A stretch of DNA of 64,000 bases, from the NCBI GenBank assembly GCA_965248755.1, contig OZ252149.1, positions 1,504,001-1,568,000 of the forward strand. The letters are read 5' to 3'. Origin of the DNA: Candidatus Latescibacterota bacterium. GTDB lineage: Bacteria; Latescibacterota; CBDEFO01. Below the pieces are notes generated by a model. That model saw only the letters and a list, made by a program, of their open reading frames with translations. It made no database searches and was not told where the DNA came from. Positions 4,183 to 60,657 of this stretch are shown in pieces (the first letter of the stretch is position 1; the number at the start of each line of letters is the position of its first letter). The position numbers and the translations under genes were made by a program.

Positions 4183-4221
4183 CCCGATTGAATCCCCGAT
4201 TGAGTCTATCGGGGATCGGGG
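4183..4221. repeat. Nested pair of the 21-bp palindromic element
   Basis: CCCGATTGAAT[CCCCGATTGAGTCTATCGGGG]ATCGGGG. Confidence 0.85.
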
Positions 4222-4353
4222 AAGCCCAGAGCCCTTAGCCCAGAGCGAAGCGAAGGGCCTGCGAAGTTCCAGTGAAGAGATCTTATGTTGCAGTTACAAC
4301 AGGATACAGCACTGCAGATAGGGGCAAAGGCAAGTAGATTCCTGGAGGCATAA

Positions 4354-5673
4354 GTGTCAAGTAGTTCAAAAGGATATAGAGGGATCCTGATCAAAGGTGG
4401 GAAAGTTTTAGATCCGGCCATTGGTCTGGAGAGCGAAAAGGATGTATTGATCGAGGACGGGACTATAAAGAAAATAGATAGAGACATCGCCGAAGAAGAC
4501 GGTCTGGAGGTCATAAGGGCAAAAGGTTTAGTCGTAACACCAGGGCTTATAGATATGCACGTTCATCTGAGGGAGCCGGGCAGGGAGGACGAAGAGACGA
4601 TAGCTTCGGGAACGGACGCTGCTGCGGCTGGAGGGTTTACGGCTGTAGCCTGCCTGCCGAACACAGAGCCGCCTATCGATAATGCCGGCATCGTGAGGTC
4701 TGTGATAGAAAGAGCGCAAGGAGCAAAAGCAAAGGTCTATCCCATAGCGGCGATAACCAAGGGACAGGCGGGCGCAGAGTTGACAGAGATGGGCGATCTT
4801 GTGGATGCCGGGGCTGTAGGGTTCTCAGACGACGGCCTCCCCGTGGAGGACGCCTCTGTGATGAGGAACGCACTGGAGTACTCCGGAATGTTCAACGTCC
4901 CGATCTTGACTCACTCGGAGATAAGATCTTTGACACAGGGCGGCCATATGAACGAGGGGCGCTGCTCGTCTATCTTGGGGATCAAGGGAATGCCAAGAGA
5001 AGCTGAAGAGTTGATGATCGCACGGGATATTTCTCTGGTCGAAAAGACAAAGGGCGGTGCGACCACTCCGTGCAGACTCCATGTCCTGCATGTCAGCACG
5101 AAGGGTTCTGTGGAGCTGATCAGAGAGGCGAAGAAGAGAGACCTGCCCGTAACATGCGAGGTGACACCCCATCATTTTACCCTCACCGAGGATGAGGTAA
5201 TGACGTTCAACACGAACTCCAAGATGAGCCCGCCTTTGAGGACAGCGGAGGATATTGAAGAGATTAGGTGCGGCCTGAGCGACGGCACAATTGACGCAAT
5301 CGCGACCGATCACGCCCCACATTCAAGGGAGGAGAAGGAGACCGAATTTGAGGAGGCTCCCTTCGGGATATTGGGACTTGAGACGGCCCTTGGATTGGTA
5401 ATCACACAGTTAGTGGAGCCTGAAATTCTGTCCTTGAGCGAGGCGATATATAAAATGACCGTTGTACCTGCCAGGATACTCGGAATTGAAGGAGGAGAAT
5501 TGAGGATAGGTGGAAAGGCCGACGTTGCGATTATGGATCCCAATTTGGAGTGGACTGTGGACGTGGAAAGCTTCAAGTCACTCTCAAAGAATAGCCCGTT
5601 TGACGGGATGAAATTGAAGGGGAGGGCAGTAGCAACTATCCTTGACGGGGAAATCGTGCACAGGATTCAGTAA
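4354..5673 (+). CDS. pyrC: Dihydroorotase
   Basis: Motifs DMHVHLREPG and ATDHAPH; pyr operon context. Confidence 0.96.
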   Translation: MSSSSKGYRGILIKGGKVLDPAIGLESEKDVLIEDGTIKKIDRDIAEEDGLEVIRAKGLVVTPGLIDMHVHLREPGREDEETIASGTDAAAAGGFTAVACLPNTEPPIDNAGIVRSVIERAQGAKAKVYPIAAITKGQAGAELTEMGDLVDAGAVGFSDDGLPVEDASVMRNALEYSGMFNVPILTHSEIRSLTQGGHMNEGRCSSILGIKGMPREAEELMIARDISLVEKTKGGATTPCRLHVLHVSTKGSVELIREAKKRDLPVTCEVTPHHFTLTEDEVMTFNTNSKMSPPLRTAEDIEEIRCGLSDGTIDAIATDHAPHSREEKETEFEEAPFGILGLETALGLVITQLVEPEILSLSEAIYKMTVVPARILGIEGGELRIGGKADVAIMDPNLEWTVDVESFKSLSKNSPFDGMKLKGRAVATILDGEIVHRIQ

Positions 5674-5689
5674 CAGTAGATAACGTACA

Positions 5690-5715
5690 GTAGGGGCAGA
5701 CCCGTGTGTCTGCCC
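5690..5715 (+). repeat. GTAG-type REP-like palindrome
   Basis: GTAG followed by the hairpin GGGCAGAC-CCGTGT-GTCTGCCC. Confidence 0.7.
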
Positions 5716-5877
5716 TGGTTAGTGGGGTAATTCCTGGTTTCGTAGCGGCAAGATCAGCTCACCCCAAGGGCATTGAAACACTGTCCCCACATTAATTTTG
5801 CAGCGTAAGCTTGCTCATATAGTCCGAACAGGTGGCTTCACCCCTACAGATGTCTACCTAAAGGCGAAGAGAAAGAG

Positions 5878-7438: not shown

Positions 7439-7583
7439 GCAAGTAGATAAAATACACGGCATCGCCTCTCCGCCTGATTATTGGGCGAGGGAACCTCGCC
7501 CGTACCTTCTGTCTAATGTCTGCCAGATTGCTTGCTTTCCCCGAAAAAGTTCTCGGATATCCCCGTTAAGAGGAAGATAGCCA

Positions 7584-7824
7584 TCTGAACCAGATACATA
7601 AGGCCACCAATGCAGAATACCTATTACAAGATTCTACGAGATGAAGGCAAGTACTGCCCCCGATTGAACCTATCGGGGGGGAAATCCCAGAATGTAAAGG
7701 TGTCTGCGCCACTGCCGACGGTCTCGAAAGTTGTAGAGTGGAACTCGACGAAGTGCTCGAAGATTGGATTCTATTTCGAGTGTATAGAAATCTATCCCTA
7801 CCTTTAATTGCTGGCAACAGATGA
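7584..7824 (+). pseudogene. hicB: HicB-family antitoxin remnant, frameshifted by a palindrome insertion
   Basis: Joined frames read RYIRPPMQNTYYKILRDEGKYC / GEIPECKGVCATADGLESCRVELDEVLEDWILFRVYRNLSLP, which is the HicB pattern. The break coincides with the element at 7658-7678 and the start codon is degraded. Confidence 0.8.
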
Positions 7825-7927
7825 AAGTACAGTTATTAAGTTTAGTATCCACTGCTTCCTCCTTCGTTCGATTTACCTACTCATAATCTTATTGTTTAAT
7901 AGAATAAGCTAATTTTAGGAGCAAGAG

Positions 7928-8857: not shown

Positions 8858-8940
8858 CGACACTTAATAGTGTTTTTTCACTTCTTTTACATATGCTAAG
8901 GAATAAGATACACTTAGGAAGCAGAGTAATGCCCCTTTAG

Positions 8941-10287
8941 GGGTGTGTAAGGAAATTTGTGTAAATGGGGAAATGAGTTATATTAGTTGTCCACCATTTA
9001 CATAAGGAGTTCTTACATGGACAAGCTAGACCCGAAGTTGATTGATGAGCTTTTGAAGGATTACAAGAAGCCGGAAGACATAATTGGTGAGGAAGGTCTT
9101 TTGAAGCAGTTGACGAAGGCGATTCTTGAGCGGGCTCTGGAGTCAGAGCTTACGTATGAGTTAGGCTACGATAAGAGTTCTCCAGAAGGGAGGAACAGCG
9201 GTAATTCGCGCAACGGTAGGAGCACAAAGGGATTGAAGACAGATTATGGTGATCTGGAGATATCGGTGCCACGGGATCGGAACAGTCAGTTTGATCCGCA
9301 GATAGTGAGGAAGGGGCAGAGGCGATTTACAGGCTTTGATGATAAGATACTGTCTATGTATGCCCGAGGGATGACCACACGTGATATACAGGCTCATTTG
9401 GAGGAGATATACGGTGTAGAGGTGTCCCCTGATTTGATATCGACTGTGACCGATGGGATCATATCAGAGGTGAAGCAGTGGCAGGATCGTCCTTTGGAAG
9501 GGGTGTATCCCATAGTATTCTTTGATTCTCTGGTGATGAAGATTAGAGACGAAGGCCGGATCGTAAACAAGGCGGTGTATCTTGCGGTAGGGGTCGGTCT
9601 GGATGGGATGAAAGACGTTTTGGGTATCTGGATTGCAAAGAGCGAGGGGGCGAAGTTCTGGCTGCAAGTTTTCACGGAGCTTAAGAATCGGGGGATGAAC
9701 GATGTGTTGATAGCTTGCGTGGATGGTCTCCAGGGTCTTCCAGAGGCTATTGAATCCGTATTTCCCCAAGCAGAGGTCCAGCTCTGTATTGTCCATGTGG
9801 TGAGGAATTCCTTGAAGTTCGTGTCGTATAGGGATCGTAAGAAGATTGCCGCCGACCTCAAGAATATATACCGAGCCCCCACGGTAGAACAGGCTGAAGA
9901 GGCCCTTGGAGATTTTCAGGAGGCTTGGGACAGCCGTTATCCGATGATAAGTAAATCGTGGCAGAATAACTGGTCTCGGATCATCCCGTTTTTCGCCTAC
10001 TCTGAAGAGATCCGAAGGGTGATCTATACCACAAACGCCATCGAATCGCTTAATAACTCTCTACGGAAAGTAATAAAGAACAGAAATAGCTTCCCAAACG
10101 ACGAGACAGCGATTAAGTTACTCTATATGACACTCAAGAATATCAAGAAAAAATGGACGATGCCGATCAGGAACTGGAGCTTGGCCATTCACCAATTCTC
10201 CATCCACTTCGAGGGGAGATTTGGTATAGAATAAGCCGAAAAGGGTACAGAAGAAAATCCCATTTACACAAAAAAACTGACAGACCC
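8941..10287 (+). mobile_element. IS256-family element, copy 1 (1347 bp)
   Basis: Terminal IRs GGGTGTGTAAGGAAATTTGTGTAAATGGG and CCCATTTACACAAAAAAACTGACAGACCC. Ends are defined by comparison with copy 2. Confidence 0.95.
9017..10234 (+). CDS. IS256-family (Mutator) transposase
   Basis: Motifs VPRDR, MYARGMTTRDI, QLCIVH, IYTTNAIES. Confidence 0.96.
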   Translation: MDKLDPKLIDELLKDYKKPEDIIGEEGLLKQLTKAILERALESELTYELGYDKSSPEGRNSGNSRNGRSTKGLKTDYGDLEISVPRDRNSQFDPQIVRKGQRRFTGFDDKILSMYARGMTTRDIQAHLEEIYGVEVSPDLISTVTDGIISEVKQWQDRPLEGVYPIVFFDSLVMKIRDEGRIVNKAVYLAVGVGLDGMKDVLGIWIAKSEGAKFWLQVFTELKNRGMNDVLIACVDGLQGLPEAIESVFPQAEVQLCIVHVVRNSLKFVSYRDRKKIAADLKNIYRAPTVEQAEEALGDFQEAWDSRYPMISKSWQNNWSRIIPFFAYSEEIRRVIYTTNAIESLNNSLRKVIKNRNSFPNDETAIKLLYMTLKNIKKKWTMPIRNWSLAIHQFSIHFEGRFGIE

Positions 10288-10373
10288 AATTTTTCCTTCA
10301 TATGAATGCCTATCAAGTAACTTGTCTGTCTAAAGAAGGTTTATACAGATTTCTATGCTATTAACCTATATAC

Positions 10374-10616
10374 TGCGGTGCTCCCCTGGAAAGCGACACC
10401 GATTAAGCAACCACGGGTAGCAGATAAGCTGGCTAATACCATTTTCCCGCCATAGTTCCGATACATTACCGCCTCTCAAAAGACCCAGCACAACCTCTAT
10501 CTTAGGAGTCACCACCCAGCGCGTACCATCCTTCACTTCGGCGCTTGACACTCTGAGCTACTTTCTCAAACCCTAATTTGCGAAATATTTGTCGCTCTGT
10601 CAAGGAGAGCGGTCTG
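10374..10616 (-). mobile_element. Internally deleted (MITE-like) derivative of the IS3-family element at 43822-45087
   Basis: Both ends and the first ~40 codons of orfA align by eye to the full element. Flanks are ATAC/ATCC, a possible decayed 4-bp TSD. Confidence 0.85.
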
Positions 10617-11053
10617 ATCCATCGGTTTGAACCAATTGTTTCATCGATCTTATCTTCTAATTCAGAGAGTTCTTCTGGTGCATTAATGTCACCGTGATAA
10701 TGCGCTATTGCTTTTGTTTCCCCATCAATGGTTATGGAGGTTAAAGCAGAAGAACTGTCGGTAACGAAATACTCTTCGTAGCTATCCTTTAAAGAGTAAT
10801 AGTCTATTCTCTCAAACTCTGAAATCAATTGTCTAATTTTCCGCTTACTGACAGTACTCGTCCTTTTGCCCGTAACCTTAACAAACATCTCACCTTCATA
10901 GACAACCCTCCCCTTGCCATATATTGTTAGCTTATAAACAGGGCAAAGGCCATAACATGGTGTTCTTTCCAGCGTGATAACTACGCCCTTAAAATTCGTT
11001 ATGGTCGCCAAAGGATTCCTTTCGGTATTCGTAGACGTGTGTTTCTTTTTCAT
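10502..11053 (-). CDS. DUF6438-like protein; C-terminal tail is IS-derived
   Basis: Motif ITLERTPCYGLCPVYKLTIYGKGRVVYEG. Residues after NRWI are read from the IS remnant. Confidence 0.75.
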   Translation of the reverse strand: MKKKHTSTNTERNPLATITNFKGVVITLERTPCYGLCPVYKLTIYGKGRVVYEGEMFVKVTGKRTSTVSKRKIRQLISEFERIDYYSLKDSYEEYFVTDSSSALTSITIDGETKAIAHYHGDINAPEELSELEDKIDETIGSNRWIRPLSLTERQIFRKLGFEKVAQSVKRRSEGWYALGGDS

Positions 11054-11273
11054 CTTATGTGTCTCCTGCTGTGAGTGGCATAGCTACTCATCTCTCTATA
11101 TCACAAGCCTACTGAGGTTCACCGCATCAAGACCAGCTTCCTTGTCTTCACAAACCCATCTGTCTCCATCCGATACAAATAAACGCCGCTGGCCGGGCTT
11201 TCTCCGTTATTATCTTTGCCATCCCGGACTATAGAAGAACGTAAGCCTCAGGAACGTCTGATGGTAGTTCTGC

Positions 11274-11795
11274 CTACTCATTTATGGTAGCGGGGGTAGT
11301 GGACAGATTCAGCAACACTGATACATTATTGCTGCCCGCATTAGCCACAGCCAGGTCATTATTACCATCTCCATCTAAATCTGCAATGAAAACCAAACGG
11401 GGACTATGCCCAGCAGCATAGTCAGCCCTACGTGCAAATGTACCATCTCCATTATTCAACAACACTGATGCACCGACGCCTCCAGCCACAGCTAGGTCAT
11501 TATCACCATCTCCATCTAAATCTGCAATGAATACTGATATGGGCCAATCCCCAGCAGGATAGTTTACTTTAGGTGCAAATGTCCCATTTCCATTGTTCAA
11601 CAGCACCGATACATAGTCGAGTCCAGCCACAGCTAAGTCATTGTCGCCATCTCCATCTAAATCTGAGACGAATACTGACGTAGGACGATCCCCAGCAGGA
11701 TAGTCAGACCTGGGTCCGAAAAGATCCTGTGCATAGGGAGTCGCACTCAAAGGGAAAAGCAGTACCAAAGCAGTGTAGAACATTTTCTGTATCAT
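11274..11795 (-). CDS. Secreted FG-GAP/VCBS repeat protein
   Basis: Signal peptide plus three DLDGDGxNDLAVA...VSVLLN repeats. Confidence 0.85.
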   Translation of the reverse strand: MIQKMFYTALVLLFPLSATPYAQDLFGPRSDYPAGDRPTSVFVSDLDGDGDNDLAVAGLDYVSVLLNNGNGTFAPKVNYPAGDWPISVFIADLDGDGDNDLAVAGGVGASVLLNNGDGTFARRADYAAGHSPRLVFIADLDGDGNNDLAVANAGSNNVSVLLNLSTTPATINE

Positions 11796-11958
11796 TATTA
11801 GGTGTCCGTTGCTATGCCAAAGAGAGTTGTTACGGAGATTCTTCACAGTCAATCAGGAGAGAAGATACAACTGAGGTGAGTAGATGTCGATAGAGGATAG
11901 ATAACTGGGAAAATGGTCAGAGAAAATCCTCAAAAGATAAAAGTTTCCGCATCCGAAA

Positions 11959-13305
11959 GGGTCTGTCAGTTTTTTTGTGTAAATGGGATTTTCTTCTGTA
12001 CCCTTTTCGGCTTATTCTATACCAAATCTCCCCTCGAAGTGGATGGAGAATTGGTGAATGGCCAAGCTCCAGTTCCTGATCGGCATCGTCCATTTTTTCT
12101 TGATATTCTTGAGTGTCATATAGAGTAACTTAATCGCTGTCTCGTCGTTTGGGAAGCTATTTCTGTTCTTTATTACTTTCCGTAGAGAGTTATTAAGCGA
12201 TTCGATGGCGTTTGTGGTATAGATCACCCTTCGGATCTCTTCAGAGTAGGCGAAAAACGGGATGATCCGAGACCAGTTATTCTGCCACGATTTACTTATC
12301 ATCGGATAACGGCTGTCCCAAGCCTCCTGAAAATCTCCAAGGGCCTCTTCAGCCTGTTCTACCGTGGGGGCTCGGTATATATTCTTGAGGTCGGCGGCAA
12401 TCTTCTTACGATCCCTATACGACACGAACTTCAAGGAATTCCTCACCACATGGACAATACAGAGCTGGACCTCTGCTTGGGGAAATACGGATTCAATAGC
12501 CTCTGGAAGACCCTGGAGACCATCCACGCAAGCTATCAACACATCGTTCATCCCCCGATTCTTAAGCTCCGTGAAAACTTGCAGCCAGAACTTCGCCCCC
12601 TCGCTCTTTGCAATCCAGATACCCAAAACGTCTTTCATCCCATCCAGACCGACCCCTACCGCAAGATACACCGCCTTGTTTACGATCCGGCCTTCGTCTC
12701 TAATCTTCATCACCAGAGAATCAAAGAATACTATGGGATACACCCCTTCCAAAGGACGATCCTGCCACTGCTTCACCTCTGATATGATCCCATCGGTCAC
12801 AGTCGATATCAAATCAGGGGACACCTCTACACCGTATATCTCCTCCAAATGAGCCTGTATATCACGTGTGGTCATCCCTCGGGCATACATAGACAGTATC
12901 TTATCATCAAAGCCTGTAAATCGCCTCTGCCCCTTCCTCACTATCTGCGGATCAAACTGACTGTTCCGATCCCGTGGCACCGATATCTCCAGATCACCAT
13001 AATCTGTCTTCAATCCCTTTGTGCTCCTACCGTTGCGCGAATTACCGCTGTTCCTCCCTTCTGGAGAACTCTTATCGTAGCCTAACTCATACGTAAGCTC
13101 TGACTCCAGAGCCCGCTCAAGAATCGCCTTCGTCAACTGCTTCAAAAGACCTTCCTCACCAATTATGTCTTCCGGCTTCTTGTAATCCTTCAAAAGCTCA
13201 TCAATCAACTTCGGGTCTAGCTTGTCCATGTAAGAACTCCTTATGTAAATGGTGGACAACTAATATAACTCATTTCCCCATTTACACAAATTTCCTTACA
13301 CACCC
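11959..13305 (-). mobile_element. IS256-family element, copy 2 (inverted)
   Basis: Reverse complement of 8941-10287; the translated transposase is identical. Confidence 0.95.
12012..13229 (-). CDS. IS256-family transposase
   Basis: Protein identical to 9017-10234. Confidence 0.96.
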   Translation of the reverse strand: MDKLDPKLIDELLKDYKKPEDIIGEEGLLKQLTKAILERALESELTYELGYDKSSPEGRNSGNSRNGRSTKGLKTDYGDLEISVPRDRNSQFDPQIVRKGQRRFTGFDDKILSMYARGMTTRDIQAHLEEIYGVEVSPDLISTVTDGIISEVKQWQDRPLEGVYPIVFFDSLVMKIRDEGRIVNKAVYLAVGVGLDGMKDVLGIWIAKSEGAKFWLQVFTELKNRGMNDVLIACVDGLQGLPEAIESVFPQAEVQLCIVHVVRNSLKFVSYRDRKKIAADLKNIYRAPTVEQAEEALGDFQEAWDSRYPMISKSWQNNWSRIIPFFAYSEEIRRVIYTTNAIESLNNSLRKVIKNRNSFPNDETAIKLLYMTLKNIKKKWTMPIRNWSLAIHQFSIHFEGRFGIE

Positions 13306-21684: not shown

Positions 21685-24600
21685 TCAGCCATTTCTACCA
21701 CAGCACTTTTTGTACTTTTTTCCGCTGCCGCAGGTACAGGGATCGTTCCTTCCCACCTTGGGACCAGCTCTGACCACCCGCTTGAGGGCCTTTTCCCTTA
21801 TGGGCGCGTCGCCCCTATGTTCTACGATCTCAGATTCATCAGGCCCCACATCATAGCCCATTCCCGTTGCGTCTTCGTGTATCAGTCTGATCCCCTCAGG
21901 AGCCCTCCTGCTTCTCATCCTCGGAACCCCGATTGAATCCATGGGGGAACTCTCCTCAATAGGTGTCCTGAACAGGAACTTCAGGGTCTCCGTGTTGATG
22001 CTATCCAAAAGATCGACGAACATATGGAACGCTTCGGTTTTGTACTCGACCAGAGGGTCTTTCTGACCGTAGGCTCTCAGGCCGATCCCCTCTTTGAGAC
22101 TATCTATCTCGTAAAGGTGCTCTCTCCATTTGTCGTCTATAATGCCCAAAAGCACCATCTTTTCTATCTGTCTTAAGCGTTCCGAACCGATTTTCTCCTC
22201 TCGCCTTCTGTAAACCTGCATCACCTCGGATTTTATTCTCTCCCTCAGGTCCTCTTGCTTGAGACCTGCCATCTCCTCTTCATCCGTGGGAAGCTCGATC
22301 AAGAAGATATTTCTCAAATCCATCTTCAATCCGTCCCAATCCCACTCTTCAGGGTAGGACCTGTTGTCTGTGTGAGCCTCCACTAAAGATTCCACCGTCT
22401 GATCTATCATCTCGACGATATGTTCCACTACGTCCTCTTTTTCTAATGCGTCCCTCCTCCTATCGTAGATCACCTCACGCTGTTGATTCATCACGTCGTC
22501 GTACTCCAGAACGTGCTTCCTCATCTCGAAGTTCCTGTTCTCCACCTTCTTCTGAGCGTTGCTGATGGATTTGGTAACTAAGGAGTGTTCTATTACCTCA
22601 TTTTCTTCGGCGCCCAATCTGTCCATAATTGAAGCTATCCTTTCAGAGCCGAAGAGCCTCATCAGGTCGTCCTCTAAGGACAGAAAGAATCTGGATGCCC
22701 CCGGATCGCCCTGTCTTCCGCTCCTGCCTCTCAGCTGTCTGTCGATCCTCCTGGCATCGTGCCTTTCTGTACCTATGATCTGAAGGCCGCACGGAACATC
22801 GGCTTCGCAGTCAGATAGCGTAAGGCCGTCGGCTGTAGGAGTAGATCCGGGGAGCCCCGAACGCACAAGACACTTGTCGCACTTTACAACCCTCAGTCCT
22901 AACTTTATATCCGTCCCTCTTCCGGCCATATTCGTGGCGATAGTAACAGCCCCCGGTTCACCCGCCTGGGCCACGATTCCAGCCTCTTTCTGATGATACT
23001 TGGCGTTCAACACGGAATGAGGTATCCCCCTTCGCCTGAGCATACGGCTTAAAGTCTCGGACACTTCCACCGAAATAGTCCCGACCAGGACCGGAAGATT
23101 GTTCTGGTGCATAGTGGCGATTTCATCTATGATAGCGTTGTACTTTTCCCTCTTGGTCCTGTATATAACGTCATCGTAATCTATCCTTCTGACTGGCTCG
23201 TTGGTCGGGATGACCGACACGTCTAATTTGTAGATGTCGAAGAACTCATTAGCCTCCGTCTCCGCTGTTCCTGTCATCCCTGCCAGCTTGTCGTAAAGTC
23301 GCCTGAAGTAGTTCTGGAGAGTAATGCTCGCTATCGTCTGGGTCTCTCTTTCTATCTTGACGTTCTCCCTTGCCTCCAGAGCCTGATGCAGACCGTCTGA
23401 AAATCTCCGTCCGGGCTGAAGCCTCCCCGTAAATTCGTCCACAATAATAACGTGTCCGTCCTGAACCACGTACTCAACGTCCCTTTCAAAGAGCGAATAT
23501 GCCCTTAAAAGCTGACTTATGTTGTGAATAGTCTCGCTTCTTAGAGCATAAGCCCTGTGAGCTTCATCCTGCTTTTGCACCTTTTCATCCTCGGACAGAG
23601 ACTCGTCGTTCTCTATCTCTTTGAGATTTTCGCTCAAGTCTGGGAGCACTAACATATCCTGTTCCTCAGGAAGGAGTGACGACCTCCCCTGATCCGTAAG
23701 GTCTATCGTATGTCCCTTTTCATCTATGCTGTAGAACAAGTCCTCATCTATCTCCCCCATCTTTTTATCTCGCATAAAGTCAGCTTCCACACGATTTATT
23801 AACTTCTTTATCCCCTCTCCCTGGATCAGCTTCATAAACCTTTTGTTTCGGGGGCTTCCCCTTTGGACCTGTAGAAGTTTGATCCCGATTTCGTACTCGT
23901 CATCGCCGTTTTTCAACATGCTCTCCGCCTCAGCCAGCAAACTGTTCACAAGCCTCGTCTGACTGTTTACAAGCTTTTGAATCAGTGGTTTAAGCTCGCT
24001 GTATCTTTGGGTCGATTCGGGAACAGGTCCCGACATAATATGAGGCGTTCTGGCTTCATCTATTAAGATGCTGTCGACTTCGTCCACGATAGCATAGTTG
24101 TAATCCTTTTGAACTATGTCCTGCGTACTGGTGGATATGTTGTCCCTTAAATAGTCGAACCCGAATTCGTTGTTATTTCCGTAGGTGATGTCAGCTAAAT
24201 AGACGGCTTCGCGTTCAGAAGGTTCGAGGGCGTAGTCCTCTCCCTTTTTGACTAAAATAAACGAATCTGGCTGCGTATAGTCCCCCTTGTCCTGAATCAC
24301 GCCCAACGTAAGACCTAAGAAATCGTAGATGGGACCCATCCACGAAGCGTCCCTTCGAGCCAGATAATCGTTGGGCGTCACAAGGTGGGCGCCCCTTCCC
24401 GAAAGGGCGTTCAGATAGAGCGGCATCGTAGCCACTAACGTCTTTCCCTCGCCTGTGGCCATCTCAGCTACCTTGCCCTGATGCAGGACGACCGCGCCTA
24501 TCAATTGCACGTCGTAGGGGACATCGTTCCAAGTTATCGTCTGGCCGCAGACGTCCCATTGCCTTCCCACGAACCTGCGACAAACTTCTTTGACAACCGC

Positions 24601-26618: not shown

Positions 26619-26679
26619 ATGGGTCCAAGTAAAGGAAGAAACAGTCCAAATGAGATTGCTTAGTTGCACCCGATTTATC

Positions 26680-26700
26680 CCCCGGTAGATTCAATCGGGG
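26680..26700 (-). repeat. 21-bp palindromic element inserted in another hairpin
   Basis: ACCCGATTTATC[CCCCGGTAGATTCAATCGGGG]GGGT. Confidence 0.8.
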
Positions 26701-26767
26701 GGGTAAGAATGACGTTGCTTGCGCTTTTTTAGAACCTTTGAGTTCCGTCTACTCCCAAAGTGATATG

Positions 26768-43886: not shown

Positions 43887-44198
43887 GTGTCGAGCCCCGA
43901 AGTGAAAGATGGTAAGCGCTGGACGGCGACCCGTAAGGGAGAGATTGTGTTGGCTCTTTTGAGAGGAGCAGATCTATCTGAGGTGTGTCGTAAGAATGGA
44001 ATTAGCCAGTCGCAGGCGTATGCTTGGCGTGATAGTTTCTTAGAAGGGGGCCAGGAGAGTCTGAAGTCTCGGCGTGGTCGCAAGGATCCGAAGGAGCGAG
44101 AGGTTAGCCGGTTGGAGCGCAAGGTAGGGCAGTTGACGCTCCAGTTGGAGATACTCGAAGAGGTAGCCCGTCTAAAAAAAACGAAGCGGTTGCCTTGA
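43887..44198 (+). CDS. IS3-family transposase OrfA (HTH)
   Basis: EVCRKNGISQSQAYAWR plus the zipper LERKVGQLTL. Confidence 0.88.
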   Translation: MSSPEVKDGKRWTATRKGEIVLALLRGADLSEVCRKNGISQSQAYAWRDSFLEGGQESLKSRRGRKDPKEREVSRLERKVGQLTLQLEILEEVARLKKTKRLP

Positions 44199-45058: not shown

Positions 45059-45748
45059 TTGGTGTCGCTTTCCTGGGAAGCAGTACAAGGCGGACATCTA
45101 AGAAGAGACGGATATTGAACTATATCGGACTCGGTTTAAGCAGTTTATATCTGATCTTTACGGTTATCAACAAATTCTATGTGAACTGGGTATTTGAAGG
45201 GTCGCTTGCAAGACAGAACATCTCATATGACAGATACTTTACGACGCCGACTCCGTTAAATAATATCCTCTGGAGTGGTGTCTTTGAAGACGAAAATGGT
45301 TTTTGGTTGGGACACTACTCTCTGCTGGACAGCAATAAAGACATTACTTTTCGATACATTGAGAAGAACGATCATCTAATTGATCTTATAAAGGATCAGC
45401 GGGCAATAGATAGGCTCATTTGGGTCTCCAAAGGATATTACTCTATTACCACAAAAGACGGTTTTAACTATTTTAACGACCTGAGATTCGGCCAATTCGG
45501 CGGGTGGGCGCAAGAGAGAGATAAGTTCTCATTTTCATATAAGATCATTAACGATGGAAACCGCGTTGACATCCGGAGGGAGCGCCGGTCGCTCGCACTC
45601 AGTTCGCTCAGGGAGCCGCTGAATCAACTTATCGAACGTGTAAAAGGGATTTGATACATTGGTGACCCGGTTCAGATTCAGCTTCTTCGAGTTTGTGACC
45701 CTGCAAAACGTCAGCTGAATATCATTCTTTCAAAGCAGAAAAAAAGAG

Positions 45749-50529: not shown

Positions 50530-50607
50530 ATTTTCTCTCTCTTTGGTAGATTATCCTATTCTGTCACAGTCCACACCATTTTGCCCGTAACACTCGTACT
50601 CATCGGG

Positions 50608-50647
50608 CCCCGATTGAACCCCCGATTGACTCTATCGGGGGGCGGGG
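50608..50647. repeat. Nested 21-bp palindromic element
   Basis: CCCCGATTGAAC[CCCCGATTGACTCTATCGGGG]GGCGGGG. Confidence 0.8.
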
Positions 50648-50701
50648 ATCAATAAGGGGGCAAGATACAAAGCCCTCCTTAGAGTGCACTTGAACGATCA
50701 C

Positions 50702-52310: not shown

Positions 52311-52338
52311 AAGGTCTATGCGTTGGTCTAATTTCTAT

Positions 52339-52593: not shown

Positions 52594-54249
52594 CTATTCT
52601 CCGAAGAGATCCACTGTCTCCTTTTCTACCTTTTTTCTCTTTTCCCTGGGATCTACCTCGCCCATGTCCTTGTAGAACTTCTCGTCGTAATCTCTGGTTC
52701 TTATCACCACCGGCATAGGGACAGCGTGTCCTATCACCAGGGCCTGCTGTTTGGAATCCAGGCTGGCAAGCACGCTCCTTAAGCCCGAAGCGTTGCTGAC
52801 TCCCGTTAAGACAGCCTGTATATCCTTCTCATCGTTCAGAAGGGCCGTTATCTTGGTGCCAATCTGAGACAGCACCTCTTCGTCTATGCCTGAGGGCCTC
52901 TGATCCACAATCAGAAGGGAGACATAGTATTTCCTCATCTCCCTTGCAATAGTTCCGAAGATCGTCTGCTTTGCCGCCACAGGGTTCAGGAACTTATGTG
53001 CCTCTTCTATCGTTATAACCAACTGTTTGGGTTCATCCTCAACATTCTGTGTGGAGTAGTACTTCTCGCTCTTTTTTACGTAGAGCTCGTGTATCCTCCT
53101 TGTGATGATGTTGGATACCAAAAGGTAGCAGAGTATGCTCGTCTGCTGACCGAACTCCAGAACTATGTGAATGCCCCTATCAATATAGTCCATGATCTTG
53201 TCTATCACATCCTGTCCTTGAGTCTTGCTGACCATAAAGGGGAAGTTCTCAATCCTCTTGAGCTTCCTGTGCAGAGCCACCAGAGAACCCGGATGCGCGT
53301 TTATCTCCTCAGCGAACTCCTCGACCCCCTTCCCCTCCTGATCTAAAAGTGTCCTGAGCCATTTTTCTCTGTATATAGCGTAGACAAGATAAGCCGACTC
53401 CACGGCGGTGGGATTCAGTTTTAGCTCCTCCTGAAGGGGAGCTATGTCCTCTACCGTAATCTGATCGTAGCTGATATAGACTTCGTGATCGGGTTGAACG
53501 CCTCTATCCCTGGTAGATTTCGGATCCAGGGAGAATATCGCCATCTTACTTCCGAACAGTTGTTTTAAGCCCTTGACAAAAGCCCCTTTCCCGATGCCCG
53601 ACTCGGCGATCGCCTTCCAGCCGTACTCGTTGTGCATGTCGAAGATGAAGTTTACGGCCGTGTCGCGCTTAATAAGACCTGAAAGCACAAGCCTGGTCAA
53701 AAACGTCTTTCCCGTTCCGGTCTTTCCGAAGATCCCGTTGCTCCTTTCCACGAAGCGGTTCAAGTTCAGGCATACGGGAGTCTCCATATCCAGAGGTTTG
53801 CCCACGCTGAAATACTTTTTCGAGGCGGATTCGTTCCCGAAGATGCGACTTACGTCCTCCTCCTCGGCCTCCTGAACCATCGAAAAGTGGCCGGGTATGG
53901 TCTTGACGGGTCGCGGCTCTGCATCTCCTTCGTCATTCTCTTGCTCATCTCTGCCCAGCATAAGCATAGGGCGCAGAGAAACAACTACGTACGTGCTCGT
54001 ACCGTCCAGCACCTTATGCATCAGTCCATCGCTCCAATCGGGAGGGTTTACCAATATATCAGGATTTGTCGCATCCAGCCGCACATCTGTGATCATGGAG
54101 AAAAAGTCGTTCTGCTGTCCCTCGATGACCACGAATTTCCCCGCCTTAATCTCTTCCACGTTCAGGTTCTTCTGGTCCAACTTCATCTCCAGTCCTTCAA
54201 CGAGAGAACCTTTCGTGATAATACCTATGCTGCTGTAGCGTCTTCTCAA
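52594..54249 (-). CDS. herA: HerA-family ATPase/helicase (N-terminal HAS barrel)
   Basis: Motifs GKTGTGKT, FDMHNEY, IEEAH, AREMRKY, DQRPS. Confidence 0.9.
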   Translation of the reverse strand: MRRRYSSIGIITKGSLVEGLEMKLDQKNLNVEEIKAGKFVVIEGQQNDFFSMITDVRLDATNPDILVNPPDWSDGLMHKVLDGTSTYVVVSLRPMLMLGRDEQENDEGDAEPRPVKTIPGHFSMVQEAEEEDVSRIFGNESASKKYFSVGKPLDMETPVCLNLNRFVERSNGIFGKTGTGKTFLTRLVLSGLIKRDTAVNFIFDMHNEYGWKAIAESGIGKGAFVKGLKQLFGSKMAIFSLDPKSTRDRGVQPDHEVYISYDQITVEDIAPLQEELKLNPTAVESAYLVYAIYREKWLRTLLDQEGKGVEEFAEEINAHPGSLVALHRKLKRIENFPFMVSKTQGQDVIDKIMDYIDRGIHIVLEFGQQTSILCYLLVSNIITRRIHELYVKKSEKYYSTQNVEDEPKQLVITIEEAHKFLNPVAAKQTIFGTIAREMRKYYVSLLIVDQRPSGIDEEVLSQIGTKITALLNDEKDIQAVLTGVSNASGLRSVLASLDSKQQALVIGHAVPMPVVIRTRDYDEKFYKDMGEVDPREKRKKVEKETVDLFGE

Positions 54250-54824
54250 TCCTGTATCCTCCTGATTATCGAACTTAAGCGGTGGTAGTCGTCCCTTATG
54301 AGCCGTGAGAGTTCCTTACCCGTCCTGACCAAGTATTCGGACTCACCTCTGTGCGCCGCGAGGGCGTTCTTGACTACGGCGATTATGAGTTCATCTGTGG
54401 GCGTGCTCTTATAGCCGTTCAGAATAGTCCTCAAAAAGTCCCAGTTTGAAGTGAAATCCCTGACCTCTCCCGGGGAGCACAAATGGACGAAATTATGAAT
54501 GTGTGGCGGTTGAGGAGGGAGATACTGCTTGGGTTCTACGTCGTTGTGATAGCCCACAATGATGGCCTCAAACTCCGTCTTTAGAAGCTCGAATATCTGA
54601 GGCTGTTCCATCCTGAGTTCTTCTTCGCTCTTGCCGTAGGCTGTGGGCCTCCTGTTCGGCTCTATCGAGTGTGTGGAGGTGTTGCAGACGATCCCGAATA
54701 TAGTGGGCTTCGAGTCCGTCTTCACAAATGCCCCAAAAGAAGGCGACTTGTGCAATTCACGCGTCTCAGCCGTAAAGTGAACCGTGCTGCTTTCGATGAT
54801 CTCCCCGATGTAATCTTCTTCCAT
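54246..54824 (-). CDS. Stand-alone HAS-barrel protein
   Basis: IGEIIESST...SFGAFVK...QYLPPQPP; lies between nurA and herA. Confidence 0.8.
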   Translation of the reverse strand: MEEDYIGEIIESSTVHFTAETRELHKSPSFGAFVKTDSKPTIFGIVCNTSTHSIEPNRRPTAYGKSEEELRMEQPQIFELLKTEFEAIIVGYHNDVEPKQYLPPQPPHIHNFVHLCSPGEVRDFTSNWDFLRTILNGYKSTPTDELIIAVVKNALAAHRGESEYLVRTGKELSRLIRDDYHRLSSIIRRIQD

Positions 54825-54863
54825 AAGCGCTTCGCCCCTTCAAAATATAGTAAACAGTCGTCG

Positions 54864-54938
54864 GTAGAACAGACATTCTTGTCTGTTCAGTAGACAGGGC
54901 ATCTCACTCCCAATGTCAGACAGGAATGTCTGACCTAC
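54864..54938. repeat. Inverted REP doublet (REPIN-like)
   Basis: GTAGAACAGACATTCTTGTCTGTTC ... GTCAGACAGGAATGTCTGACCTAC. Confidence 0.85.
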
Positions 54939-54942
54939 TTGT

Positions 54943-56136
54943 TTATACTGTCGGCCCCAGCTTTTTCAGACTCTTTGCTGAAATGGCGGTCTTAATGTCG
55001 TTTTTGACCAAAGCGTCTCTTAAGAATTGGTAGAAAATATCTCTGTCTTTTCCTCTGACCACTGCTTTTTCGTGAGCTTCCGAGAGCACTATCGGATAGC
55101 CCGATCCCTTTTGGGCTTGATCACAGATGACAGAGTGGACAAGCTCCAAGAGTCTCTCGTCCTCGGCTACCCAACCAGGTATCTCGACTCTGGCTATCTC
55201 CCAACCTGCGTTTACGTAGAAGAAGAAGACTCTGTGAACTTCGTATTCATTCAGTACCCTGGAGGAACTTGCAAAGACGGGAGACCTTTCACCTTCTTTC
55301 AGAACTCGGGAGAAGAGAAGACCGTCCGTTACGCCTTCAATCGGCTCACAGGGAAGCTGGGGGATTATGCTATTTTCCACCTCTTCTTTCCACGGGCACC
55401 TGTCGCAGTCGGCTGCCTCTAAAGGGCATAAGCCCACTCTAAGCGTGTTGATGACGTCCGCACTTCCGGGATGGCTTATGTATCCGGCAAGAGGGACATC
55501 CGCCTCTTTGATCCGGTCGAAGGAATCCAAAAAGGGTTTGAGAGCCTGTCCTTTGAAGTCGGGAGGCGTGCCCTCAAGAGTCCACATGATCAGCGTCCCG
55601 TCTGAGAGAGCCACAGCGGTTCTGTCCTCAGAGGCTGCGGTTTCGGAAAGATCCGCCAGCGCCTTAAATTCCAGCGATCCCCTCTTTATAGCCAGAAACT
55701 CGCTGTTCATAAACGACCTCCTGCCTCCCCATGTCTGATAGAGGTCTTTCTCTCTGTAGAACAGCGAAGGCTCGCAGGTGAGGAGTGGCCGCTCTCCTGT
55801 CCCATAGTGGATCATTACAGAGCCGATATTTATCAGATAGCAGGATGAAACCTCGTGTCGGTCTGGGAATATCTGAGAGCCATCCGTCGCCGCAACGGTA
55901 ACCTCTTTAGGCCTTTCCGGCTTCGGATACGACTGCTTCAAAGGTCCCGAGATCCCTGCAAGAAGCCAGGAAGTCTTACTCCTTTCGACCTTATCCGAAA
56001 GCTCCTGCCACTTTGCCGACCACTCTATGAGCAGATTGTAGGCAGTTTCCATCTTATCGAGGAAGGTGTTCTGGCTCTCCTTCTGCTCCTTGGCCATCTG
56101 GTCTATCTGTCTTTTAACTATCGCAAGGTCTAACAT
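54943..56136 (-). CDS. nurA: NurA-family nuclease
   Basis: Motifs ATDGSQI, LSDGTLI, ARVE, GYPIVLSEAHE. Confidence 0.9.
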   Translation of the reverse strand: MLDLAIVKRQIDQMAKEQKESQNTFLDKMETAYNLLIEWSAKWQELSDKVERSKTSWLLAGISGPLKQSYPKPERPKEVTVAATDGSQIFPDRHEVSSCYLINIGSVMIHYGTGERPLLTCEPSLFYREKDLYQTWGGRRSFMNSEFLAIKRGSLEFKALADLSETAASEDRTAVALSDGTLIMWTLEGTPPDFKGQALKPFLDSFDRIKEADVPLAGYISHPGSADVINTLRVGLCPLEAADCDRCPWKEEVENSIIPQLPCEPIEGVTDGLLFSRVLKEGERSPVFASSSRVLNEYEVHRVFFFYVNAGWEIARVEIPGWVAEDERLLELVHSVICDQAQKGSGYPIVLSEAHEKAVVRGKDRDIFYQFLRDALVKNDIKTAISAKSLKKLGPTV

Positions 56137-56175
56137 TTTCGTTGGCTTCCTGTTCTACGTTCACTGCCAAATTCT

Positions 56176-56748
56176 TCACACAATAGACTCATAATAGTAC
56201 TGTCTGCCGCCTCCCTGGACGTTCGGGTCTTTCACCCGATAGGTCAATCCCATCTTCTGAAGGGCGTTGAGCCTGTTGCAGGCGATGTTGACGTTCTTTT
56301 TCAGGGCTTTAGATAATTGAGTTGATGTGAGTTTCTTCTTCTTCAGTAGTATCTCCAGAGCCTCCCTGTTCGGAGGCTTCAATTCTCCCATTATCTCGAT
56401 CTTTTCCCCTCCCCGATTGAATCTATCGGGGATCAAAAGGACGGCAAGGTCCCTTATCTTAAGCACCGCCTCTATGGTCTCTTTAACTGAAGGATTGGCT
56501 CCGACTATGAAGATGAATTTAGAGCCTAACTCACCGCTTCTGATCCTCAATATGAGCTTGGTCAGGAATTCATCGGCGCAGGAAATATCCAAAAATTCTA
56601 TACCTGAAAAATTAAGCGGGACGACTGTGTTCGCTTCGGCTCTTGCTATGTGCGCCATGAGGTCGTCTAGAATTTCCTGTCCCTTCTTCCTTCCACTTAG
56701 AATGGTATTATCTGAAGTAACAACATAGGGTTGGGCATGACTAAGCAT
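56176..56748 (-). CDS. STAS-like (DUF4325-like) plus winged-HTH regulator
   Basis: LNFSGIEFLDISCADE (STAS Ser motif); C-terminal LTSTQLSKAL...NRLNALQKMGL. Confidence 0.75.
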   Translation of the reverse strand: MLSHAQPYVVTSDNTILSGRKKGQEILDDLMAHIARAEANTVVPLNFSGIEFLDISCADEFLTKLILRIRSGELGSKFIFIVGANPSVKETIEAVLKIRDLAVLLIPDRFNRGGEKIEIMGELKPPNREALEILLKKKKLTSTQLSKALKKNVNIACNRLNALQKMGLTYRVKDPNVQGGGRQYYYESIV

Positions 56749-56767
56749 GGTTTTACCCCACTTGTTC

Positions 56768-56822
56768 AGTTTAACTTAATTTAATTAAACTATAAAGATA
56801 AAAAAAATACTTCGGATGTCAA
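56768..56822 (-). promoter_or_regulatory. Promoter with an overlapping palindromic operator candidate
   Basis: Minus-strand TTGACA at 56822-56817; near-palindrome AGTTTAACTTAATTTAATTAAACT at 56768-56791. Confidence 0.5.
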
Positions 56823-56948
56823 GCATTTTCTGAGACTTTTTGCATTTAGCATGAAAATGCGCTTTACAGATGTCTACGAGATTGCTTGCCCGATTGAATC
56901 TATCGGGGATCGCTCGCAATGACGGCTTAGGGGGAGACGGTCCGCTGT

Positions 56949-57821
56949 CTACTCTCTTTGATAGAGAGTTATGCACACCTGCGTGCCCGGAAAGGGGACG
57001 GATTCATACCTATATACCTTCGTTCCCCTTATATAGACCCTCGCATCTCCCGACCTTATGTGCAGACTCCCTCCGTGCTCGGCGCAGGTCCTCCTGACCA
57101 CGTAGAGGCCCAAGCCCCGTGTCGGATCTCTTGAGATGTCCTTCTTCAAAGCGTTCAATATAGCCGTCGCATGGCTCCATTTTGAGACATCAAACCTTGA
57201 AGATAGACTCTTTCTTATCCCGATTCCAAGATCTACCACAGAAATTACCGCAAATTTCTTGTCCTTTTTGTGATCGGTATATCTTTGAGCGGATATGTAG
57301 CCCCAATTCTCGCTGTGATCCAGGACGTTGTGACAGAGTTCAGCGGAGGCGTTCTTAAATTCGGTTATCTCCTTGATCGTATATCTAAGTTCTTCGGTCA
57401 GGATCGAATCCACGCGGCGATTTATAAGCTGTAAGACGAACTCCACATCCCTGGAGCTATGTATATGTGTCACCTCCAGGAGGGCTTCGTTGGCGGGACC
57501 CTCTGCGTATTCCATCCCCCATTCTCTGCCTTCCACCTGTGCGTAATCGCTTATGGCCTTCAGTATCTTCATCCGCCCCAGGTAGCTCTTGATAGGACCG
57601 AATTCGGGCAACTTCAAGACGACTCTGTCGAACCTTTCACACAGATAGCGGCCCAATAGACAGAGCATCCCCATGCCGTAGGGATCTATGAAATCCACAT
57701 TGGCAAGATCCACTATCACCTTACCGCGATCATCCCCGTTTCTCATTGAGGCGTTCAGGTCTTTCAGCACTCTGTCGAAGGACTTAGCAGAAAGTTTGCT
57801 GTCTCTTATCTTCAAGATCAT
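56949..57821 (-). CDS. STAS-like domain plus HATPase_c (anti-sigma kinase-like) protein
   Basis: DLANVDFIDP; N-box ELCHNVLDHS, G1 DLGIGI, G2 RGLGL. Confidence 0.8.
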   Translation of the reverse strand: MILKIRDSKLSAKSFDRVLKDLNASMRNGDDRGKVIVDLANVDFIDPYGMGMLCLLGRYLCERFDRVVLKLPEFGPIKSYLGRMKILKAISDYAQVEGREWGMEYAEGPANEALLEVTHIHSSRDVEFVLQLINRRVDSILTEELRYTIKEITEFKNASAELCHNVLDHSENWGYISAQRYTDHKKDKKFAVISVVDLGIGIRKSLSSRFDVSKWSHATAILNALKKDISRDPTRGLGLYVVRRTCAEHGGSLHIRSGDARVYIRGTKVYRYESVPFPGTQVCITLYQRE

Positions 57822-58009
57822 TCCTCCCCTCCCTATCTCCCCAAGTAGACAGGGGCACTACATCCCATCCTTGAGATTGCTTCGTCAGACAAGAATGTCT
57901 GGCCATTACAAGCATGTGTTGATAATGACGAAGGAACGTAGCCACATATGGTCTGTTAGGCGACGTGGGATTACAACACTATTTATGCTTCCATCATAAA
58001 TATGGAAAA

Positions 58010-58507
58010 CTACTGTCCTTCTGCTACTCTTAAGTTTGCAATCTTTTGCCAAGTCGGGTCAGGCTCAAGAACAACGGCAACATAAACTGCATCCTCTTTG
58101 TACATAAATGCAATTTCTCCCTTTCGGAACTCTGCAACAACCTGTTCGGGAGTGAGCTTATACAAGGCCCCAGAAATTGCATCAACAGCAAACCCTATCA
58201 AGGTACCGAAAACTATAGACTCAACCACCCTACTTCCCTTGATACTACGAGTTACTGTACATTCAAAAGGCATATAGCCATAGCCACGCATCTCAATTTT
58301 AATGATGTGGTGGTCTTTACGGCTCAAGTCTGCGAAGAGGGGAGTATTACCATAAAACCTGTTGTCAATTGTTACCAAAGCCCCAGTTGGAGTACTCGAC
58401 ACTCCAACTTCTTGCCTTGTACCGTGCATGATTGTTGAACAACCCACTAGCACCACAATGCAAAAAATAGCTGTAAAGGCACTAATGTACTTACCTCTAC
58501 GTGTCAT
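58010..58507 (-). CDS. PEGA-domain lipoprotein
   Basis: Lipobox LVGC; SSTPTGALVTID...GNTP; VDAISGALY. Confidence 0.8.
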   Translation of the reverse strand: MTRRGKYISAFTAIFCIVVLVGCSTIMHGTRQEVGVSSTPTGALVTIDNRFYGNTPLFADLSRKDHHIIKIEMRGYGYMPFECTVTRSIKGSRVVESIVFGTLIGFAVDAISGALYKLTPEQVVAEFRKGEIAFMYKEDAVYVAVVLEPDPTWQKIANLRVAEGQ

Positions 58508-58545
58508 CGTACTGCCCTCCTCCACAGGTGTCTACTGTTTGCTGT

Positions 58546-59307
58546 CTACTCCTCTTTTCTATCAGAGAAGAACCCGCGCATTAAGTCGATCGGCAAGGGG
58601 AAGATCAAAGTAGTGTTTTTATCGACCGCAATCTCAGTGACAGTCTGAAGGTATCGAAGCTGCAGGGCGGCTGGCTCCTGAGCAATGACGGCTGCTGCTT
58701 GAGTTAATCTCTCCGCCGCCTGAAACTCGCCCTCTGCGTGAATCACCTTGGCTCTCCTTTCGCGCTCTGCCTCTGCCTGCTTGGCTATAGCGCGCTGCAT
58801 CTCCTGAGGCAGGTCCACAGTCTTTACCTCCACAGCCGATACCTTGATCCCCCAGGCGTCCGTGCGCTCGTCTATGATCTGCTGGAGCCTCTGGTTTATC
58901 ATCTCCCTGTTGGCTAACAGGTCATCTAATACGTGTTCACCCAGGATGCTCCTTAGAGTCGTCTGCGCCATCTGGGACGTGGCGACGACGTAATTCTCCA
59001 CGTTGACTATGGCCTCCTGGGCCCTTATAACGCGGAAGTAGAGCACAGCGTTCACCTTTATGGTGACGTTATCTTTGGTTATAACGTCCTGTGGTGGGAT
59101 GTCCTCAGCTACTACTCTCAGCGATACTCTCACCATCCTGTCAACTATGGGGATCAGAAATATTAGACCCGGGCCCTTTTCTCCTATCAACCTGCCCAAT
59201 CTGAAGATGACGCCGCGCTCGTATTCCCTTAAGACCCGTATTGCTGCTGAAAGGATAACAATGGCAAAGAGTATCAAAACTATCAATCCAAAACCCCAAT
59301 TCGGCAT
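58546..59307 (-). CDS. Stomatin/SPFH (slipin) protein
   Basis: [36 protein letters not shown]. Confidence 0.95.
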
Positions 59308-59346
59308 GGCTTTATCCTCTGTTTTCTGGTTGTTCTAGTCGCTCGC

Positions 59347-60657
59347 TTACGTCTCAATCTTCGAGACCTTTAACACGGAGCGATCTGTGCTGATTACGTT
59401 CACTTTGTCCCCTTTGGATATGGGGACATCCGATTCTGCGTTCCAGTGTTCGCCTATCAAAAATACAGTTCCCTCGCCCTTTATGTCGGTTCTTGCCTCA
59501 CCGATCTTTCCCACAAGGCTCTCCGATCCGCTAAACACCTCCTTTTTCTGCGCTCTGAGACCCATGCCTACAGCTAAGATGAAGAAAAGAGTGGTAAAGG
59601 TAACAGTCGCAATTATCACCTTCCACGAGACCCTCAAGAGTGGATCGGGCGATTCAAAGAGCATTAAGGACCCTAAAGTCAAAGATATGATCCCGCCCAC
59701 GGTCAGGATTCCGTGAGTGGGGGTCTTTAATTCTGCTATGAACAGGATCACCGCAAAGGCGATTAGGAGCAACCCGGAATAGTTGACAGATAGGGTCTGC
59801 AGACCGAAGAACGCCAGGATAAGGCAGATGCCTCCCACAACTCCGGGGAGGATCGCTCCGGGATTTGAAAGCTCGAAGATAAGGCCGTAGATACCGAGCA
59901 TCATCAGTATGTAGGCGATATTGGGGTTGGAGATAGCCGATAGAATCCGGCGTCTTAGTCCCATCTGGATTTCTTTTATCTCTGCTCCTTTGGTCTGGAG
60001 CGTTCTATTTGATGATGGGAGTTCGACCTCCGCTCCGTCCAGGGAATCCAAGAGCGCTGACACGTCCTCACACACGAAATCTATAATCCCTATCTCCAGC
60101 GCCTCGCTCTCGGTTGCAGAGACGCTCTTCCTAACTGCGTCTTCAGCCCACTGGATGTCTCTATTGCGCTTTTCGGCGATTGTCCTGATGTAAGCTGCAG
60201 CGTCGTTTGTGGCCTTTTCCGCTAAAGTAGTGTCCATTGCCGCCCCTCCGGCGCCTATCTGCACAGGGTGGGCAGCGCCCACGTTGGTCCCCGGTGCCAT
60301 AGCTGCAAAGTGTGCAGCCAGCATTATAAATGCCCCCGCCGACGCAGCTCGGGATCCACTGGGAGAGACATAGACTACGACGGGCACCTCGGCCGCCATT
60401 ATTCTCTTGACGATGACGCGCATAGAGGCGTCAAGTCCCCCTGGAGTGTCCAACTTTATTATCAGACACTCTGCCTCATCCGATTCGGCTGTCTCTATGG
60501 CCTCGACTATGAACTCGGCCGATGTGGGACCGATGGCCCCGGCCACGACCGCAAGGTTCACGGTCCGTTCCCCGATTGAATCTATCGGGGATGAGAAGGA
60601 GGACGATGCTATAAAAAAGATGGATAGTAATAAAACCGAAGCTTTTTTGATGACCAT
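59347..60657 (-). CDS. nfeD: NfeD (long form, ClpP-class protease domain)
   Basis: DTPGG, AASAG, GAAHP, TM bundle and GEHW OB-fold; adjacent to the stomatin gene. Confidence 0.95.
   Translation of the reverse strand: MVIKKASVLLLSIFFIASSSFSSPIDSIGERTVNLAVVAGAIGPTSAEFIVEAIETAESDEAECLIIKLDTPGGLDASMRVIVKRIMAAEVPVVVYVSPSGSRAASAGAFIMLAAHFAAMAPGTNVGAAHPVQIGAGGAAMDTTLAEKATNDAAAYIRTIAEKRNRDIQWAEDAVRKSVSATESEALEIGIIDFVCEDVSALLDSLDGAEVELPSSNRTLQTKGAEIKEIQMGLRRRILSAISNPNIAYILMMLGIYGLIFELSNPGAILPGVVGGICLILAFFGLQTLSVNYSGLLLIAFAVILFIAELKTPTHGILTVGGIISLTLGSLMLFESPDPLLRVSWKVIIATVTFTTLFFILAVGMGLRAQKKEVFSGSESLVGKIGEARTDIKGEGTVFLIGEHWNAESDVPISKGDKVNVISTDRSVLKVSKIET

Follow-up and report, generated by a model that had tools for sequence, protein, structure and literature searches.

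The 64-kb window analysed here (64,000 nt; positions 1,504,001 to 1,568,000 of contig OZ252149.1, assembly GCA_965248755.1) lies within the genome of a Candidatus Latescibacterota bacterium, G000, which is a single contig of 4.54 Mb and 98% complete, and it contains eight copies of a very short hairpin that the original prediction described as a 21-bp mobile element inserting into genes, other repeats and itself. All eight were recovered where they had been reported, with 0 matches in 100 shuffles. Two of them (56411 and 60570) carry the exact 21-mer, the other six differ from it at one or two bases, and in seven of the eight the two flanking bases are complementary, as had been noted. For comparison we used a sister genome of the same genus, G001, which is ~95% identical to G000 (~5% divergence) and of which 2.8 of about 4.6 Mb, plus short loci, were read as DNA.

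Two of the window copies are composites: at 4181..4222 (plus strand) bases 12-15 (TCTA) of an outer copy are replaced by an inner 23-mer with terminal bases T..A (4193-4215), a site at which G001 has a shorter form, and at 50607..50648 (plus) an inner C..G 23-mer (50619-50641) sits in an outer copy where G001 has a single copy; the split outer copies reported at 4194 and 50620 are real. The 23-nt C..G copy at 7657..7679 (plus) is intergenic and common to G001, and at 26669..26703 (minus) a 23-nt C..G element (26679-26701) lies within the remains of a 17-nt relative. The 23-nt T..A copy at 56887..56909 (plus) occupies the loop of a CGTC-type repetitive extragenic palindromic (REP) hairpin, with a net gain of 18 nt, and its site is empty in G001 and in run X5. 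The remaining three lie, as claimed, in frame in intact open reading frames (ORFs), all on the minus strand with the element on the plus strand: an older, decayed copy at 21926..21948 in the C-terminal linker of secA, reading SPMDSIG and common to G001; a perfect T..A element at 56410..56432 in a 190-aa ORF (56176-56748); and a perfect T..A element at 60569..60591 near the N-terminus of an NfeD-family gene, just past a signal-like start, which reads SPIDSIGE and at which G001 has a 17-nt-type variant. The copy at 56410..56432 is lineage-specific, G001 being empty there, and it replaced five target bases for a net gain of 18 nt, or six codons. The insert in SecA amounts to seven or eight extra residues relative to four or five of six other members of the phylum.

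The hairpin is abundant well beyond the window. G000 holds 105, 293, 431 and 530 copies of the 21-mer at up to zero, one, two and three mismatches, evenly spread over the genome, which confirms the genome-wide enrichment. To describe the flanks, we pooled the copies with two or fewer mismatches (431 from G000 and 290 from G001) and removed repeated flanks, leaving 517 unique sites. The consensus unit is 23 nt, Y-CCCCGATTGANTCTATCGGGG-R (Y-[21]-R), not 21 nt, and it folds into an 8-bp stem with terminal inverted repeats; the loop could additionally form a T-T mismatch and two more pairs round a free centre base. The terminal pair is T..A at 222 and C..G at 173 of the unique sites, and the ends are complementary at 79 of 82 metagenome sites. 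In 36 replacement events for which product and empty target were compared, the ends pair in 35 products and in only 13 of the targets, and the terminal pair therefore belongs to the unit. It is also linked to internal variants, a centre G accompanying 26 T..A ends vs two C..G ends (p=8e-6; p=0.012 with 172 nested sites removed). The proposal that the element is exactly seven codons long is not borne out by this unit size and stem, and only three of the 71 clean insertion events described below add 21 nt. The same ends are present in two further forms, one a relative of 17 nt (40 copies when two mismatches are allowed) and the other 27 nt long and headed by CCTG.

Does so small a sequence move? 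We consider it very probably mobile. Pairing between the genomes was possible for 259 of the 530 G000 copies and 308 of 385 G001-side copies, and the element was absent from the partner genome for 44 and 85 of these, respectively (115 once identical contexts were removed). Clean flanks were present at 82 polymorphic sites, 71 of which remained after removal of paralogues, so that the empty sites sought in a relative exist, and with them the original picture of a minimal non-autonomous element inserting into genes, other repeats and itself is borne out. Gain, not loss, is the usual direction, because polymorphic copies deviate less from the consensus (0.75 mismatches vs 1.15 for shared copies, p=0.017), most SecA relatives lack the extra residues, and copies in insertion sequences (ISs) and outer elements show the empty state to be ancestral.

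The size changes at the 71 clean events fall into two classes. One comprises +18 (8 events), +19 (15), +20 (10) and +21 (3), equivalent to a loss of two to five target bases, mostly three or four, so that 36 of the 71 events delete target bases; the other comprises +26 (3) and +27 (16), with an apparent 3-4-bp target duplication or a carried CCTG. One event is at +24, none is at +22, +23 or +25, and composites, slippage or mispairs account for the remaining 15. Within the +26/+27 class, nine of 19 rows carry CCTG, mostly mismatching the target, and in other rows the target is duplicated exactly or nearly so (TCAA, TGAA, TTG). The original statement that no target duplication is visible does not survive a larger sample, since exact 4-nt direct repeats flank 22 of the 517 sites vs 4.0 expected, and 3-nt repeats flank 51 vs 17.6 expected; a fixed 2-bp duplication was tested for and not found. 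Each of the two junctions reads R^Y and has a loose YYNR half-site 5' to it on its own strand; the half-sites on the two sides vary independently. The four bases adjoining new copies mismatch at a rate of 0.08-0.28, compared with about 0.05 at shared sites (2-5 times background).

When the centre base is left free and one mismatch is tolerated, the pattern occurs 360 times in G000 and 374 times in G001, and 0 times in 39 other genomes of the phylum. The exact pattern reappears in another phylum, in several deltaproteobacterial genomes, and nine of the 41 genomes surrounding G041 have the exact 23-mer. Metagenome contigs with 36-69% G+C contain the pattern too, and the viral contigs searched gave 0 matches. 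A longer intergenic repeat, opening with a CCCCAAAAA...TTTTTGGGG hairpin and recurring in deltaproteobacterial contigs (L245, L255, L298 and others), often has the element in it. An adapter or assembly artefact had been named as a possible explanation, and it is ruled out by the comparable copy number in G001, by the metagenome occurrences and by a public short-read contig, probably from the source sample and a contig rather than raw reads, that covers window positions 54870-63866 with zero differences. Run X5 is without the copy at 56888, and run X8 carries an additional one at 44489, where G000 is empty.

Where the element lands is biased. A loose motif test places 155 of the 517 sites within or next to another copy, vs 7.6% of random intergenic sites; 57 lie in CGTC REPs (background 1.3%), 54 in CTACTGT repeats (3.5%) and 30 in GTAG REPs (1.8%). 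A stricter fit leaves 63 nested copies, of which 32 replace exactly TCTA at outer positions 12-15, 16 in each orientation, although these cases are partly dependent in that particular inner variants go with particular configurations. About nine orthologous sites have a single copy in one genome and a composite 17-20 nt longer in the other, several of them, including 50620 in the window, sharing an unusual T-to-G change 3' of the inner copy; one composite was gained whole where the site had been empty (+38). Taken together, the composites, the inner variants and the altered adjoining bases suggest that donor copies serve as templates and that both ends anneal. Other repeats also carry the hairpin along: in an IS3-family element (75 copies), one sub-lineage bears it as a +20 insertion that has multiplied with its host, at G000:C1:863046 and about 15 other sites.

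These observations lead us to favour, tentatively, a non-autonomous 23-nt hairpin that is copied into nicked or broken target DNA, its target ends annealing to a donor copy. In such a scheme a trans-acting helper, a nuclease or strand-transferase, would nick single-stranded DNA or hairpins that have been extruded. The 3' ends set free would pair, through a few bases, with the arms of a donor copy or with its flanks, and would be extended across that copy; donor flank bases would thereby be brought along and resident copies turned into composites. A housekeeping enzyme could act as the helper, as could the product of a gene that escaped annotation or a visitor that has since disappeared. Several points weigh against this reading. 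The match of target flanks to the element before insertion is loose, and the composite families could stem from independent insertions of the same inner variants. At ~5% divergence between G000 and G001, some of the junction changes are later mutations or alignment slips under an ungapped model. The tally itself has soft spots: three of the +27 events enter it twice, each viewed from both tandem copies, and the net size of events in CTACTGT repeats is ambiguous by 7. Less probable again is a broader version, in which tagless, ultra-small selfish hairpins with no dedicated transposase would provoke nicks in their own copies and in similar DNA, be copied in by host repair synthesis, spread between phyla as short oligonucleotides or IS passengers and homogenise themselves by conversion; if true, it would amount to a mode of self-propagation new to bacterial DNA.

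The search for a helper gene was a loose first pass by gene family, and carriers other than G000 and G001 are incomplete genomes. Cas1, Ku, NucS and IS110 were not found in G000, and no reverse transcriptase (RT), Cas1, Ku, NucS, IS110 or IS1380-like gene is common to the carriers. Genes of the four-helix-bundle, GxxExxY and DUF559 types are patchy, and at 0 of 34 such loci does the hairpin (four or fewer mismatches) flank the gene, with a related hairpin more than 1 kb away at three. Where the element stands on either side of a gene, that gene is an ordinary housekeeping one, no mobile gene recurs in 120 metagenome loci, and none of six IS families checked fits both the ends and the target rule.

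The original prediction looked to REP-associated tyrosine transposases (RAYTs) for mobilisation, and the most durable competitor to donor copying is of this kind, although we judge it rather unlikely: a REP-like singlet moved by a RAYT/Y1 HUH transposase whose gene is retained in G001 and lost from G000. The size and internal T-T mismatch of the element resemble HUH substrates (PMC6006769, PMC8266576). Lineage-specific events are more numerous in G001 (37) than in G000 (19), under unequal sampling. The common half-sites TTGA and TCAA resemble cleavage tetramers of the IS200/IS605 group. G001 does contain a RAYT (L369, G001:C8:1474678-1478115), which is absent at the matching G000 site, and a perfect 23-mer copy is nested in the REP downstream of it. 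The REPs on either side of this gene are, however, of the different GTAG type, and GTAG is the left 4-mer at only 12 of the 517 unique sites, whose left flanks are heterogeneous. The Pfam family PF01797 drew a blank in both genomes and had missed the G001 RAYT, so the search was redone with NF047646 and our own profile; no Y1/RAYT gene was detected in G000 by Pfam, NCBIfam or our own profile on six frames. RAYT-like genes occur in six of seven carrier genomes (E<=0.1) but also in 23 of 39 element-free relatives, and of nine deltaproteobacterial RAYT loci inspected, 0 have the hairpin nearby (28 further RAYT-like matches fall outside these nine). The expected RAYT or TnpA(Y1) gene flanked by the hairpin was thus found neither in G000 nor at those loci. 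Copies are, in addition, mainly solitary (430 of 530 have no other within 400 bp; for 100 the next one is nearer than that, and for 55 it is no more than 150 bp away), and the symmetric half-sites and absence of replichore bias (p=0.36) are at odds with the prediction of single-strand peel-and-paste movement.

Less plausible still is that the element is a CGTC-type REP hairpin (an Ssn-related motif) without its tag, with the GIY-YIG nuclease Ssn making the nicks. The deltaproteobacterial CGTC REP hairpin has the same 21-nt layout (L142, L321, L349), one copy of the element sequence lies in a CGTC REP context, and the excess of CGTC REPs among the targets noted above (57 of 517 sites vs 1.3%) points the same way, as do Ssn genes in G001 and three of nine other carriers (four matches in these three). 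According to PMC11893778, Ssn cuts single-stranded DNA near such hairpins and the CGTCAT tag is crucial. That tag, CGTC(AT), is outside the 30 commonest left flanks in G000 and G001 and precedes one exact copy among the 82 metagenome sites. G000 has no intact Ssn; its only GIY-YIG genes are UvrC and what is left, at the 5' end, of an Ssn gene. The G001 Ssn gene (L235) stands between copies of a different hairpin, and Ssn is not known to move DNA.

An RNA intermediate inserted by target-primed reverse transcription is very unlikely. Target-primed insertion typically yields both duplications and deletions, as seen here, and G000 has two RT genes. One of these, however, is interrupted by an IS and the other stands alone, neither is in the G001 DNA read, no RT was found in G001 or in three of four other carriers, and the orientation of the element to flanking genes is unbiased (125 vs 145). 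The first RT is retron-like, with an upstream effector-like gene and an IS3-family insertion (L242, G000:C1:3730098-3733640); the second is a 507-aa defence-type RT between proS and a HicB-like gene (L243:775-2298).

We give just as little weight to an immobile motif, for binding, uptake or termination, that arises by point mutation, or to ancestral copies lost by hairpin deletion. CG is present in 15 of 36 replaced stretches, as the deletion scar of the inner 19 bases would leave, and 215 of the 259 paired G000 sites are filled in G001 too. The length changes of 18-27 nt are not point mutations, though, target ends are mostly non-complementary, the ancestral state as given by nested sites, IS copies and SecA relatives is empty, the polymorphic copies are the youngest, and a third lineage (X8) is filled at 44489. 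The least probable account, an extreme miniature inverted-repeat transposable element of a DDE transposase such as that of the IS1380-like element, which is present about 50 times in G000 and many times in G001 and whose left end (CCCCCATT) resembles the C-type end of the hairpin with similar first eight bases, founders on the ~5-bp, TA-rich target duplications of that element (not 3-4 bp YYRR), on the predominance of deletions and lack of a fixed-length duplication here, on its not being found in any of four deltaproteobacterial carriers searched (incomplete genomes) and on a length of 23 bp that is too short to synapse two transposon ends. The IS1380 family name is our presumption for an element with no Pfam match; it lies at window positions 43400-45100, its right end is variable, and its copies take adjacent sequence, namely fragments of rlmN-like and Ssn genes, with them to new sites.

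The original prediction also held that the element writes 7-aa peptides into the proteome. The peptides are there: PIDSIG, PDRFNR, PRLNLSG and PIESIG occur 13, 8, 9 and 15 times. The four stop-free frames of six are likewise as described, but this is chance level, shuffles giving 4.3-4.6. By our own gene calls for G000 (3714 genes, 82% coding), 113 of the 530 copies are inside genes, so that coding sites are scarce; 62 copies are more than 30 codons from either gene end, and many near-start cases may reflect wrong starts. Among the intergenic events, no more than 44% have a size divisible by three, hence most insertions would shift the frame, and neutral in-frame survival predicts 57% of copies in genes vs at most 21% observed, roughly threefold fewer. 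Because open frames are at chance, multiples of three are few and coding copies are depleted, peptide writing is a by-product and the in-frame cases are survivors of selection. The practical consequences are nevertheless appreciable: roughly 60 G000 proteins gain 5-11 residues, IS copies are broken, and gene-start calling and short-read assembly can be misled.

How 20-30-base repeats spread in bacteria is an open question, and the hairpin, which is real and among the smallest mobile-looking DNA elements, bears on it directly. Its closest known kin are the small dispersed repeats (SDRs) of Nostoc and REPs. Elhai and colleagues reportedly described the Nostocaceae repeats in 2008, at about 20-27 nt. 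Compared by description only, SDRs such as SDR5 are like our element in being very short, apparently mobile and without a known enzyme, and SDR5 inserts into a short palindromic target, HIP1; hosts and sequence are different, however, SDRs are reported to be absent outside Nostocaceae (PMC4390886, PMC5861425, PMC2884548), and SDR5 insertion is described as precise whereas here three or four bases are deleted or added and the self-target is fixed. GTAG REPs and REPINs are alike in being short imperfect hairpins of hundreds of copies, mostly intergenic and some intragenic (PMC3733652, PMC3116915, PMC6006769), but the element has no GTAG tag, occurs as singlets rather than doublets and has no cognate flanked transposase; REP singlets are regarded as immobile remnants (PMC3116915), whereas singlets of the element come and go. 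CGTC REPs have a very similar core in deltaproteobacterial hosts and no dedicated transposase (PMC3733652, PMC11893778); the element differs in lacking the CGTCAT tag and head-to-head pairs and in not flanking the Ssn gene of G001, and it inserts into CGTC REPs. Rickettsia palindromic elements also make in-frame inserts in unrelated proteins, yet they are about 150 bp and nearly half coding (PMC10969869), compared with 23 nt and at most a fifth. A looser analogy is the proposal, in PMC11708052, that ISs insert into existing breaks without duplication. Our literature search, with subscription journals and supplements outside its scope, returned no description of the element sequence or junction pattern. 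SDRs and CGTC REPs are themselves without a known mobilising enzyme, and dozens of filled/empty pairs, a two-outcome junction rule and a fixed self-target constrain the chemistry in ways that are testable with short oligonucleotides.

Several other features of the window and genome deserve mention. An Rfam scan of the window gave one tRNA only. NurA and HerA-like genes stand side by side at 52594-56136. Elsewhere in G000, a four-helix-bundle (23S rRNA IVP family) gene with an internal stop (L388, G000:C1:2579400-2580000) has CTACTGT tandem repeats on both sides, the same ones that are dispersed through the genome, and CTAG is strongly avoided, at 0.25 of expectation. At window positions 8987-13259, two identical inverted IS256 copies enclose a fragment of a 141-nt-repeat (NHL-like) gene, and the largest gene family of G000 consists of about 150 NHL-repeat secreted proteins.

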